From: Candidatus Omnitrophota bacterium
Lineage (GTDB): Bacteria; Omnitrophota; Gorgyraeia; Zapsychrales; Zapsychraceae
Reading direction: 5' to 3'
DNA length: 29,844 nucleotides
Assembly: GCA_030634235.1 (NCBI GenBank)
Contig: DAOWBD010000001.1
Coordinates: 1-29,844, forward strand
Made by a program: the position numbers and the translations under genes. Positions 19,167 through 22,773 of this stretch are shown here, in pieces (position 1 is the stretch's first letter; every line of letters starts with the position of its first letter). The notes beneath the pieces are model-generated. The model did not search any database, was not told the origin of the DNA, and saw only the letters and a program-made list of their open reading frames with translations.

Positions 19167-19838
19167 TTACCTCTTGCGAGAACAGACTTCTTTAATAAAA
19201 TAGGCAAAAAAACGGATGGTGTCTTTGAAAGGATTGATCTTGCTTTCTTCGTTGCGATAGATCGTTTTGATCGGGACGTTTCGGACCTTGAACCCTTTCC
19301 GGCACGCCTTCATCAGGATCTCCGTCTCGATCTGGAAATCCCGGGAGGTCAGATCAAGCTCTTTAAGAATATCGCAATGAATATAGCGGTAACCGCACTG
19401 CGTGTCCATGATCAACTGCCCGCACGCCAGGGAAATGAGCCGCGACATAAAACGGTTCGTGCAGTAGCGGACAGCCGGCATGCCCTTGGCATTCGCCATG
19501 CGGTTGCCGACGATCACGCTAAGCTTGTTCTTTTCGGCCTCGATGAGGAACCGGTCGATCCCGCCGACATCATGCTGCCCGTCGCCGTCCATCATGATCA
19601 CGGCATCGTAACCGCGTTCGATCGCATAGCGAAACCCTTCGCGCAGGGAATATCCCTTACCCTGCTTCTCATCGTGACGAAGGACGATCGCGCCCTTCTC
19701 CTGAGCGATAATGCCGGTTTCATCAACTGACCCGTCGTCGATCACGAGGACATCGAACCCTTTCCTCGACAGGGACTCAACTAAGTAACCAATCGTGTAG
19801 GATTCATTATTAGCAGGAATAACGATACAAATATTCAT
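19167..19838 (-). CDS. Glycosyltransferase family 2 (DPM1-like)
   Basis: IPA.NE, DDGS.D.T, GKG, MDGDGQHD, DTQCGYR and F.IETE.L motifs. ATG 19838 overlaps the upstream stop (ATGA). Confidence 0.9.
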   Translation of the reverse strand: MNICIVIPANNESYTIGYLVESLSRKGFDVLVIDDGSVDETGIIAQEKGAIVLRHDEKQGKGYSLREGFRYAIERGYDAVIMMDGDGQHDVGGIDRFLIEAEKNKLSVIVGNRMANAKGMPAVRYCTNRFMSRLISLACGQLIMDTQCGYRYIHCDILKELDLTSRDFQIETEILMKACRKGFKVRNVPIKTIYRNEESKINPFKDTIRFFAYFIKEVCSRKR

Positions 19839-20698
19839 TTTACGGAAAACTCCCTGAATAATAACCATTGAGACGGATACGCAAGGATCTTCTCCTCGAT
19901 CACGGGCATGTAACGGGCCATAAACTCTTCCATAACGCCATCCTCAGCCTTGCCCCTATTGCGATCCGGAGGATAGATCGGTTCCAAACAGGAAAAGAGA
20001 AATGTCCCGTCGCCGCCACGAACAAGGAACATCGGCAGGATCGGGGCCCCGGTCTTAAGCGAGAACATCGCCGGTCCTTTCGGGACGAGCATCTTGCGCC
20101 CGAGGAAATCCATTACGATCCCGTGCTCACCGAAATCACGGTCGGCGACGAGAGCAACGAGCTTATTGCTGCGCAATTGTTTGATGCAGCGGCGCAGCGC
20201 ACCGTTCGTCGGAACCACCGTGACCCCTTTCGTCTCTCTCTGGTCGTTGAACAGGTCGTTGACCAGCCGCTCCTTATGCGGCAGGGCGATCGCCATAAGA
20301 GGATACCCCAACACACTGAGCAATACAGCACCTAACTCCCAATTGCCAATGTGCGCGGTAATAACGACCCCGCCTTTGCCTTCCGCCAGGACCCTGTCTA
20401 AATGTTCGATCCCCTCGATACGCACCTTGTCCTTGATGAACTGCGCGCCAACCATTTCTTTCATCTGAAAGAACTCGATCAAATACCTTCCGAAATTCCG
20501 GAATACATCCCGCGCCAAAAAAGAGATGTTCTCCGTCGACGGCAATATGCTCTTAAGATTGTTCCTGACGGCCCGCCGATCCCGGAATGAAAACAAATAC
20601 TGAAGATCGGAAATACATGCCGCGAACTTATAGCATAACGAAACCGGCAACCAGTGAAGAAGGTATAACCCGACTTTGTACAGGAAGAGCTTAAACAT
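19835..20698 (-). CDS. Lipid acyltransferase of the LpxL/HtrB-PatA superfamily
   Basis: AHIGNWE catalytic motif, LVADRD, GPA.FS..TGAPI and YPSQW. Confidence 0.88.
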   Translation of the reverse strand: MFKLFLYKVGLYLLHWLPVSLCYKFAACISDLQYLFSFRDRRAVRNNLKSILPSTENISFLARDVFRNFGRYLIEFFQMKEMVGAQFIKDKVRIEGIEHLDRVLAEGKGGVVITAHIGNWELGAVLLSVLGYPLMAIALPHKERLVNDLFNDQRETKGVTVVPTNGALRRCIKQLRSNKLVALVADRDFGEHGIVMDFLGRKMLVPKGPAMFSLKTGAPILPMFLVRGGDGTFLFSCLEPIYPPDRNRGKAEDGVMEEFMARYMPVIEEKILAYPSQWLLFREFSVK

Positions 20699-21878
20699 AA
20701 GTTTCTGAACTTAGACAGTCGTTGTCTTTAGGTACTAACGAACCATTGGTATGCTCTAAGATCAGCTTCGCGATATCAAGGGCCGCGTGCGGCCGTGCGT
20801 TCTCATAAGCGGCCTTGCTCATACTTGCCAAGCGTTCCGGCGACTTCAGCAGCAACTCGACCTCCTCGCCGATGTCATTAGTGTCATCGATGCGAATACC
20901 GACCCCCTTCTTAATCAGAAAATCTGTATTGCGCATCTCCTGGCCCGGGATCGGATTAACAATGACCATCGGCAGCCCCTTCGCCAGGCACTCCGCGGTC
21001 GTGATCCCGCCGGGCTTCGTGATAATGATCGTTGCCAATTCCATCAACTCGTCAACGTTTGTCGCGAACTCATAGATCAGAATTTTCTTCTCTGATCTTT
21101 TCGTATAACGCTTCAGGCTACTGATGATCTTCTTGTTCACGCCGGCTAAGACGATCATCTGAAAGTCCATCTTCACCTTAATAAGTGACTTCACCGTTGA
21201 TTTGATTGGGCCTAAGCCCTGGCCGCCGCCCATAATGACGACTGTCGGGATCTCGGGATCAAGCTCCAACTTCTTCGCGATCGGATTCTTATCTAACTGA
21301 CTGGAAAATTTTGAACGCATCGGAATACCATAGACCTTGATCGCGTCCGACGGAACACCTTTCTTGATAAAGCGCTCCTTCGCCTCGACCGACGGAACGA
21401 CATAATAATCGACCCCTTCATTAATCCAGAACGAATGCGGCGAGAAATCAGTCAAGACACCGATGATCGTTGTCTTTAAATTATGTTCCATTTTATAGTG
21501 GGCGACCATCCCGCACGGGAAAGCCTGGGTGCAGACAACAACATCGGGCTTATGCCGCAAAAACAGCTTCGCAACTTTATCATAACTCGTCTTATGCAGA
21601 AAATTCTTGATCGATTCGGATTTCTTGACAATCTTAGGGTTATCGTACATATAATCCCAGACCTTCGGCGTCCTCTTGATCACGCTCATGTACGCCCGAT
21701 TGACAACCTTCTCTAAGATCGGGTAGGTAAAACCGAAGCCGTTGATCGTCGGGGCCTCTATCCCTGGATCAAGCTGCTTCAATGACTTTTGGATGGCAAC
21801 CGTCGCCTGCCGGTGACCGGAAACCTTCGTGATATACATCAGCAAGACACGGTTTTTTTTGTGTTTCTCGTCACTCAT
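20691..21878 (-). CDS. MGDG synthase/UgtP-like diacylglycerol glycosyltransferase (GT28)
   Basis: SGH...., TQAFP, VLTDF..H..W, GIP, MGGGQGLG, ITKPGG.T..E and PIPGQE..N motifs. Confidence 0.88.
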   Translation of the reverse strand: MSDEKHKKNRVLLMYITKVSGHRQATVAIQKSLKQLDPGIEAPTINGFGFTYPILEKVVNRAYMSVIKRTPKVWDYMYDNPKIVKKSESIKNFLHKTSYDKVAKLFLRHKPDVVVCTQAFPCGMVAHYKMEHNLKTTIIGVLTDFSPHSFWINEGVDYYVVPSVEAKERFIKKGVPSDAIKVYGIPMRSKFSSQLDKNPIAKKLELDPEIPTVVIMGGGQGLGPIKSTVKSLIKVKMDFQMIVLAGVNKKIISSLKRYTKRSEKKILIYEFATNVDELMELATIIITKPGGITTAECLAKGLPMVIVNPIPGQEMRNTDFLIKKGVGIRIDDTNDIGEEVELLLKSPERLASMSKAAYENARPHAALDIAKLILEHTNGSLVPKDNDCLSSETYV

Positions 21879-22126
21879 CGTTGGGGTCCTGTTTGTGGTT
21901 CGATAATGGCTAACACCTCTCCGACCTTCGCCTCCCCGCCTTCGCCAACGAGGATCTCCTTGATGATGCCGGATGCTTCCGCTGGAACACTGAACGTAGC
22001 CTTATCCGTCACGAGTTCTACTACATCCGTATCGCCGGCAACCCGATCGCCGACAGCCGCGTGCCAGCAGGCAACCGTCGCCTTCTCAATCCCCTCGCCT
22101 AATTCCGGAAGAATAACCTGTTTCAT
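21875..22126 (-). CDS. Stand-alone lipoyl domain protein (83 aa)
   Basis: LPELGEGI....V..W....GD.V.....V.L.TDKA...VPA...G.I.EI...G....VG..LA.I. It carries the lipoyl-lysine motif TDKA and no catalytic or E3-binding domain. Confidence 0.9.
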   Translation of the reverse strand: MKQVILPELGEGIEKATVACWHAAVGDRVAGDTDVVELVTDKATFSVPAEASGIIKEILVGEGGEAKVGEVLAIIEPQTGPQR

Positions 22127-22128
22127 TT

Positions 22129-22773
22129 CTAATCCCTCGCGCGTTGTAAATAAAAATTCTTTAAAAAACGACCCATCATTTTCTCTTTAACCTCCTGCAG
22201 GCAGACCTCCTGTTTTTTAACGGCCGCCATCGAGGTCATTTCGACATCAAGCCCACACGGCCGGATCATCGCAAATAACTCTAAGTCCGTGTTGACATTG
22301 ACCGCGAGGCCGTGAAACGCAATCCATCTGCGTACGCCAATGCCGATAGACGCGATCTTTTTCGGCCCCACCCAGACACCCGTCTGCCCGGAAAATCTAT
22401 TAGCCACTATATCAAAATCACCCAATAAATCAATGGCAACTTGCTCTAACTGACGAAGATAGCGTCGAAGGTCTTTACCGAAATGCGCAAGATCTAGGAT
22501 CGGATAGACGATCAGTTGCCCGGGCGCGTGCAGGGTAATATCCCCTCCGCGGTCGATCGGATGAACACCGACTCCCCGCCGAGCCAATTCCTCCCCGCCG
22601 ATCAGAAGATTTTTTCCATCCGCCAAGCGGCCCAATGTCAAAACAGGCGGATGCTCGCAAAGCAGCAGAGTTTGCGGCCCGCCGCGCAACACCTCATCCA
22701 CATGCTGCTTCTGCAAAACATAGGCCTGTTCATAATCTATAAGCCCTAGGTCCTTAACATGGCATATTGTCAT
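22129..22773 (-). CDS. lipB: Lipoyl(octanoyl) transferase
   Basis: EH.PV.TLGR, DRGGD.T.H.PGQL..YPI, KIASIG, HG.A.NV and PCG catalytic Cys. Start is 22773 or 22785; the ORF-track start 22884 runs through a terminator. Confidence 0.93.
   Translation of the reverse strand: MTICHVKDLGLIDYEQAYVLQKQHVDEVLRGGPQTLLLCEHPPVLTLGRLADGKNLLIGGEELARRGVGVHPIDRGGDITLHAPGQLIVYPILDLAHFGKDLRRYLRQLEQVAIDLLGDFDIVANRFSGQTGVWVGPKKIASIGIGVRRWIAFHGLAVNVNTDLELFAMIRPCGLDVEMTSMAAVKKQEVCLQEVKEKMMGRFLKNFYLQRARD

Follow-up and report, generated by a model that had tools for sequence, protein, structure and literature searches.

Five genes are arranged head to tail, all on the minus strand, in a contig from Candidatus Omnitrophota bacterium (GCA_030634235.1, contig DAOWBD010000001.1, positions 1-29,844; the window, as used here, is this whole stretch of 29,844 nucleotides (nt)). 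They encode, in order, an octanoyltransferase (lipB), a free-standing lipoyl domain of 83 amino acids (aa) for which we use the name lipD, a GT28 glycosyltransferase, an acyltransferase and a GT2 glycosyltransferase, separated successively by a 2-nt gap, an ATGA (4-nt) overlap, an 8-nt overlap (ATGTTTAA, between the GT28 and acyltransferase genes) and another ATGA (4-nt) overlap. An earlier, sequence-only reading of this DNA had described the same genes, gap and overlaps, all of which we recovered at the same positions, and had proposed that the lipoyl domain donates acyl groups to a glycolipid made by the last three enzymes. We consider it probable, at roughly 65%, that the five genes are instead two separable modules, a lipoate module (A; lipB-lipD) and a glycolipid module (B; the three remaining genes), lying side by side through conserved gene order. 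The source is a metagenome-assembled genome (MAG) of 1.14 Mb in 195 contigs, 74% complete, in which the window is contig C185; labels of this kind (G, genomes; C, contigs; L, loci; f, families) are our own.

Distribution of the lipoyl genes and the glycolipid genes

Within the order to which this genome belongs, a free LipD of about 80 aa was found in all 41 genomes, and the five genes were collinear in 38 of 40 loci. The wider block aat-pilT-(icd)-lipB-lipD-GT28-acyltransferase-GT2-(pcm)-tonB-DUF1844-aroQ was syntenic in the same 38 loci, indicating that linkage within the order cannot separate function from inherited gene order. In the two exceptions, genomes of the same family (G006, 95% complete, and G012, 93%), lipB, lipD and the GT2 gene are directly adjacent, and genome-wide matches to the acyltransferase and GT28 were limited to paralogues of 26-30% identity, as compared with orthologue identities within the order of at least 43% for the acyltransferase and at least 51% for GT28. 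These genomes thus keep lipB-lipD without the proposed acceptor enzyme.

To cover class and phylum, 151 Omnitrophota genomes were sampled evenly, with acyltransferase orthologues defined by a best E value at or below about 1e-53. Such orthologues occurred across the own class and in families f38-f40 of other classes, and in 36 of 40 class- and phylum-level loci that we fetched the acyltransferase gene was flanked by those for GT28 and GT2, usually followed by pcm. LipB was found in only 39 of the 151 genomes, all from the own class, and every one of these 39 also contained a lipD-type domain. The co-conservation of the five genes that the sequence-only reading had suggested checking therefore held for gene order within the order, but not for the phylum, where at least 13 of the 151 genomes contained an acyltransferase orthologue and gave no match to LipB and none to a lipoyl domain (G042, G045, G049, G056, G081, G099, G107, G111, G159, G170, G172, G180 and G182). 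These genomes are mostly 94-97% complete, and that of G180 is a single contig. Retention of the acyltransferase without any lipoyl protein indicates that, in these bacteria, it uses an ordinary donor, acyl-coenzyme A (acyl-CoA) or acyl-acyl carrier protein (acyl-ACP).

As an independent set, 80 Omnitrophota loci were retrieved through the acyltransferase, and 64 of them had enough upstream sequence to place lipD. Of these 64, 21 had lipD directly upstream of the GT28 gene, 12 had it at another place in the locus and 31 contained no lipD. Between lipD and the GT28 gene there was often an inserted aat (aminotransferase) or HD-domain gene. In G141, G157, G161 and G186 the lipB-lipD pair was a long way from the trio or on a separate contig, and in G153 pair and trio were on different contigs. 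The linkage of lipD to the trio is real and old, but it is common to icd, aat and pcm too. Judged by gene content and order, GT28-acyltransferase-GT2 is a phylum-wide conserved unit, putatively for glycolipid synthesis, that is independent of lipD. Locus searches with an acyltransferase alignment yielded only Omnitrophota-like MAGs, some of them labelled Planctomycetales, Lentisphaerae or Verrucomicrobiae, so that the trio was not traced outside the phylum.

LipB, LipD and the lipoate neighbourhood

The lipB gene (22129..22773, minus strand) encodes 214 aa from an ATG at 22773, within the 208-225 aa spanned by its orthologues, and its product matches PF21948 with 142.7 bits. It scored above the curated equivalog cut-offs for octanoyl-ACP:protein N-octanoyltransferase (TIGR00214, 160.7 versus 83.55 bits; NF010925, 163.8 versus 155). 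KIASIG and PCG motifs can be seen by eye in the translation and are candidates for the sites of the catalytic lysine and cysteine (K135 and C169 in E. coli LipB).

The 83-aa product of lipD (21875..22126, minus strand) consists of a PF00364 lipoyl domain (61 bits, cut-off 22.1) as its only Pfam domain; the E2 catalytic domain PF00198 is absent. Compared with PDB structures, the lipD profile matched lipoyl domains of pyruvate dehydrogenase (PDH) E2 with an E value of 3e-38 and biotinyl carriers with 1e-9 to 1e-11, and the nearest families were the E2 lipoyl domains of SucB and PDH E2. It did not match the GCV_H profile PF01597, and the true GcvH of the genome is encoded on contig C2. The putative lipoyl-lysine K42, in the motif VTDKAT, was invariant in 59 of 59 orthologues, in which T40, D41 and A43 were each at least 90% conserved. 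LipD thereby shares the fold family and the DKA hairpin of the E2 lipoyl domains of PDH E2p and of 2-oxoglutarate dehydrogenase SucB (PDB 7b9k, 9y7v, 2l5t and 1lab), and its gene, like theirs, adjoins lipoate genes: lipB and, in relatives, also lipA and the gene for E3. Unlike them, LipD stands alone as a protein of about 80 aa without a peripheral-subunit-binding or catalytic domain, and many relatives that carry it lack any E2 core or GcvH.

Outside the order, the genes that recur upstream of lipD are those of lipoate metabolism. In 92 of 96 lipD-bearing loci, lipB, lipA or lpd was found no more than 4.5 kb upstream; these loci had been picked via lipD or the acyltransferase, hence only the upstream statistic is unbiased. 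In G091 (L091) the cluster is icd-mdh-lpd-lipB-lipA-lipD, with Lpd and LipA both above their cut-offs (TIGR01350, 477.5 versus 408.8 bits; TIGR00510, 341.7 versus 310.25), and other arrangements are icd-lpd-lipA-lipD-aat-GT28 (L082) and icd-mdh-lpd-lipD-HD-GT28 (L080). In the own genome lipA is on contig C98, and contig C2 (L116:3998-9293) contains gcvT-gcvH-gcvPA-gcvPB followed by a 263-aa LplA-type catalytic-domain gene, indicating that GcvH has a ligase-like neighbour of its own, separate from lipB.

GcvH was present in 129 of the 151 genomes. At least 11 high-quality genomes contained LipB and LipD and lacked both GcvH and an E2 core (G052, G061, G065, G077, G091, G101, G105, G109, G145, G155 and G184); Lpd was above the trusted cut-off in all five of these that we tested, its gene adjoining lipB in four. 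Conversely, four of five genomes without a lipoyl protein also lacked an Lpd above that cut-off. All 47 genomes of family f37 contained GcvH and none contained LipB, indicating that lipoylation of GcvH in this phylum does not depend on LipB or LipD.

We found no PF00198 match in the own genome, which is 74% complete, and the domain occurred in only 38 of the 151 genomes, being missing from most lipD-bearing families. E2-sized open reading frames (ORFs) of relatives were matched by the lipD query and thus carry a lipoyl domain of their own, and the lipoyl-less E2 partner for which the sequence-only reading had suggested looking did not turn up among them. Nor did we find a classical 2-oxoacid E1 able to load LipD. 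In G077, G155 and G184, strong matches to E1 alpha and beta subunits are surrounded by sugar genes of radical-SAM/SPASM, GT2 and GT9 type; E1 matches in G091 and G052 were only weak. By sequence and setting, the E1-like genes of such sugar clusters look like those of sugar-modifying thiamine diphosphate enzymes, not of 2-oxoacid dehydrogenases. One example is G077 L117:3171-9083, where E1_dh and transketolase-like genes stand among radical-SAM/SPASM, GT2, GT9 and sugar epimerase/dehydratase genes, with no E2 core; the own genome (L120:3954-7051) has only a 210-aa E1_dh-like ORF, among sugar epimerases.

An apparent lipD::Lpd fusion in G153, a 591-aa open frame, resolved into a separate 78-aa lipD plus two ORFs. 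These two, 480 and 282 aa long and without a match in Pfam, lie directly downstream of lipB-lipD (L202:1496-3774, minus strand). The Pelobacter 'lipoyl carrier protein LarG' is GcvH-like and unrelated.

The glycolipid trio and its gene string

The GT28 gene (20691..21878, minus strand; 395 aa) encodes both domains typical of UgtP and monogalactosyldiacylglycerol (MGDG) synthases (PF06925, 96.7 bits, cut-off 25; PF04101, 49.9 bits, cut-off 22). Its best PDB matches were 9wde, a processive diacylglycerol (DAG) beta-glucosyltransferase (232.5 bits), and plant MGD1 (4wyi, 177.8 bits), bearing out the likeness to UgtP and MGDG synthases noted in the sequence-only reading. It differs from the UgtP equivalog by score, since it reached 233.5 bits against NF010135, the diglucosyl-DAG synthase, for which the cut-off is 500.

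The gene between those for GT28 and GT2 (19835..20698, minus strand; 287 aa) encodes an LPLAT-family acyltransferase (PF03279, 155.8 bits, cut-off 22.3) with AHIGNWE and ADRD motifs. It had been placed by eye nearer to mycobacterial PatA than to LpxL, and the profiles agreed: PatA NF005919 scored 138.1 bits (cut-off 209, not reached) as compared with 102.9 for LpxL, and a profile of 72 orthologues matched PatA in the PDB (5oce and 5f2t, 113.6 bits) better than LpxM (5kn7, 85.9 bits). The HX4E motif is common to PatA and the present enzyme, its residues H116 and E121 being invariant in the 72 orthologues. As in the PatA-PimA operon, the acyltransferase gene is flanked by genes for glycosyltransferases of a glycolipid pathway; unlike there, these partners belong to GT28 and GT2 instead of GT4, and the predicted acceptor is probably a glycosyl-DAG, not a phosphatidylinositol mannoside. 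Most Omnitrophota genomes contain three or four LpxL/PatA-family paralogues (e.g. G075:C1:455587-456387 and G087:C3:62244-63053), one of which lies inside an ORF of about 650 aa and is probably fused to another domain.

The last gene of the run (19167..19838, minus strand) encodes a small soluble GT2 glycosyltransferase (PF00535, 72.7 bits, cut-off 23.3), resembling polyprenyl-phosphate-sugar synthases. Counted from the ATG at 19838, the protein is 223 aa long, in line with the 216-228 aa of the orthologues, and its best NCBIfam matches were AglJ (134.8 bits), PpgS (83.7) and a dolichyl-phosphate hexose transferase (77.3), all under their cut-offs. Because GT28, the acyltransferase and GT2 all remain below equivalog cut-offs, they are assigned at the family level and not to an exact specificity. 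That the product of the trio would be a glycosyl-DAG, possibly acylated, is a fair deduction from homology.

The trio belongs to a longer string: each of the 38 sizeable genes in the window is encoded on the minus strand. Other genes in the window include ribosomal genes, rpoA, aat, pilT, icd, pcm, a TonB-like gene, aroQ, efp, accBC, pfk and thi; as noted in the sequence-only reading, no gene for E1, E2, E3, the glycine-cleavage system or LipA is present in it. Fourteen of its 37 junctions are overlapping and 21 are of 15 nt or less, with a median gap of 9 nt, and even efp and accB, an obviously unrelated pair, share an ATGA-type overlap. Tight junctions are thus generic in the window, and the packing of the five genes is not meaningful by itself.

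The string continues past the GT2 gene into pcm and the TonB-like gene. The former (18508..19158, minus strand), for a protein-L-isoaspartate O-methyltransferase (PF01135, 190.8 bits), begins 8 nt downstream of the GT2 gene and is overlapped by the TonB-like gene by 26 nt; pcm is the usual gene downstream of the trio, following GT2 in many class- and phylum-level loci. On the other side, an icd-type dehydrogenase gene (22888..24093, minus strand; PF00180, 232.2 bits) is the conserved upstream neighbour of the lipoyl module. At this syntenic site the icd-type gene occurs in two forms, about 74-94% and about 31-37% identical to the window protein, which suggests replacement by a paralogous dehydrogenase of the isocitrate/isopropylmalate type. 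The 114-nt spacer between icd and lipB (22774..22887, minus strand) contains a bulged hairpin followed by UUUUAUUUUU, a weak terminator-like element. The terminator that had been read at this place corresponds to this hairpin and U-run; a consensus terminator scan flagged nothing in the spacer, and the whole spacer folds no better than its shuffled versions (z 0.80). Elsewhere in the window, a 194-aa ORF (15826-16410, minus strand) with a 4-nt overlap with pepP had no Pfam match.

Two probable modules and their alternatives

In the explanation that we favour, modules A and B would adjoin in a small Omnitrophota genome, inside a long run of densely packed genes of mixed function. In module A, LipB would move octanoate from octanoyl-ACP onto K42 of LipD, LipA would insert two sulfurs into octanoyl-LipD, and Lpd would use NAD(H) to switch the cofactor back and forth between its dithiol and disulfide forms. 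The cluster (icd-mdh-)lpd-lipB-lipA-lipD of relatives may represent the ancestral type, of which only icd-lipB-lipD would be left at this site in the present order. Lipoylated LipD would then most likely be a small, soluble, NAD(H)-linked dithiol redox carrier. Module B, the trio with its PatA-like acyltransferase and, as a rule, pcm downstream, would be the glycolipid unit conserved in the phylum; it probably glycosylates DAG and O-acylates or extends the product, with the usual acyl-CoA or acyl-ACP as donor. The working model for LipD has a likeness in Mycobacterium tuberculosis, whose Lpd-DlaT-AhpD-AhpC NADH peroxidase relay uses an Lpd-reduced lipoyl protein as a dithiol electron carrier outside 2-oxoacid oxidation. 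Unlike LipD, DlaT is a full E2, and no AhpD/AhpC-type client is linked to lipD here.

Several observations speak against the separation of the two modules or against the proposed role of LipD. In-frame lipD::GT28 fusions of 472-480 aa occur in two lineages, with different junctions and with the TDKA lysine kept in all. In G007 the lipD frame runs into that of GT28 without a stop (L039:4834-6252, 472 aa); the same fusion recurs in GCA_040960315.1 (P0122, L121:4507-5925), at 92% identity to the G007 form and with identical synteny; and P0123, from an ENA metagenome, is a 480-aa fusion that shares 66% identity with the G007 form and differs from it in having a longer junction. In addition, by a hand count from coordinates, roughly 45 of the 51 class genomes with both lipD and an acyltransferase orthologue have the two no more than about 4 kb apart, a strong and conserved linkage. 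The absences on which the separation of the modules draws come from single-query searches of MAGs, and the own genome, at its 74% completeness, contains as its sole Lpd-like sequence a C-terminal fragment at a contig end, interrupted by an in-frame stop (LTK*IIDP; C85, L114:6030-6416, minus strand), which could be a pseudogene or an assembly error. Finally, we identified no client of the proposed redox carrier.

The fusions, together with the position of lipD upstream of GT28 in many families, are the signs that a free lipoyl carrier is functionally tied to a membrane glycolipid synthase, which we regard as unlikely. Such a tie could be a loose one, in which lipoylated LipD acts at or with the synthase, for instance as a membrane-proximal dithiol or as a regulator of GT28, without being an acyl donor. 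The retained TDKA lysine, the different junctions in two lineages and an adjacency kept over several families would fit it, and the fusions keep this version alive as a slim chance. However, the fusion is rare, having been found in two of the 96 lipD-bearing loci, both from one lineage, plus the one metagenomic protein, and a single indel would suffice to fuse genes that already share 4 nt, so that we read the fusion as tolerated rather than selected. Moreover, aat or HD-domain genes often intervene between lipD and GT28, the lipB-lipD pair lies apart from the trio in the five genomes named above, and the trio occurs without lipD, as does lipD without GT28. A complex prediction for GT28 and LipD scored 0.00 against a mark of 0.32 with its controls not run, and constitutes neither support nor counter-evidence.

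About as improbable is a relay in which LipD, once loaded by LipB, would give up its octanoyl or lipoyl group to GcvH, and to any E2 of the cell, through an LplA/LipL-like enzyme. It would be the Bacillus relay with the carrier roles swapped: in the LipM-GcvH-LipL system of B. subtilis a small lipoyl carrier is likewise encoded beside an octanoyltransferase, and in the own genome a further gene, of LplA type, accompanies gcvH, following gcvPB. The constant company of LipB and a lipD-type domain, in 39 of 39 genomes, also agrees with it. Unlike in B. subtilis, the carrier is of E2 type and not GcvH, and it persists without a downstream acceptor, namely in the 11 or more genomes that keep LipB and LipD with no GcvH or E2 as destination, Lpd being present in all five checked. 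An lpd gene adjoining lipD argues for redox cycling of LipD itself, and the independence of GcvH lipoylation from LipB in family f37 further weakens the relay, which in its pure form, as put forward in the sequence-only reading, cannot be the whole story.

We give very little credence to the original proposal, that an acyl thioester on the dihydrolipoyl arm of LipD replaces acyl-CoA or acyl-ACP as the donor for the PatA-like acyltransferase in making an acylated glycosyl-DAG. Thioesters on dihydrolipoamide are established E2 chemistry, so that the donor would be chemically competent, and the conserved, translationally coupled order lipB-lipD-GT28-acyltransferase-GT2, the many class-level loci with lipD directly upstream of GT28 and the rare fusions could all be cited in its favour. 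Yet the acyltransferase is conserved in at least 13 genomes without lipB or a lipoyl domain, its H116 and E121 being invariant in the 72 aligned orthologues, sequences from lipD-less genomes among them; G006 and G012 retain lipB-lipD in the absence of acyltransferase and GT28 orthologues; no 2-oxoacid E1 was found that would load LipD, the E1-like genes being in sugar clusters; and the solved relatives PatA and LpxM use acyl-CoA or acyl-ACP. From the earlier interpretation, then, the gene identities and the PatA assignment stand; the lipoyl domain as acyl donor would be striking new chemistry, but the comparative data do not support it. Still less credible is a split E2, also raised there, in which LipD would be the swinging arm, split off as a separate protein, of a 2-oxoacid dehydrogenase with no lipoyl domain in its E2 core. 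LipD is most similar to the lipoyl domains of SucB and PDH E2, as this would require, but PF00198 is missing from the own genome (only 74% complete) and, with 38 of 151 genomes positive, from most lipD-bearing families, and the E2-sized ORFs of relatives carry their own lipoyl domain. We therefore reject it.

Were LipD tied to the glycolipid synthase after all, its lipoyl dithiol, or an acyl group attached to the lipoyl arm, would help to make or protect a membrane glycolipid, giving protein-bound lipoate a role outside 2-oxoacid, glycine and sulfur oxidation. As a caution, translational coupling and order-wide synteny in small, gene-dense genomes do not alone demonstrate shared function. In the literature on stand-alone lipoyl domains and on lipoate in Omnitrophota, we found no paper on an orphan carrier or on a lipD::GT28 fusion. 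To our knowledge, Omnitrophota has no cultured model, and the GT28-PatA-like-GT2 trio offers a concrete target for heterologous lipidomics. Under the two-module reading, Omnitrophota would possess an orphan lipoate system, in which a free E2-type lipoyl protein is accompanied by its own LipB, LipA and E3, even where there is no E2 core or GcvH.

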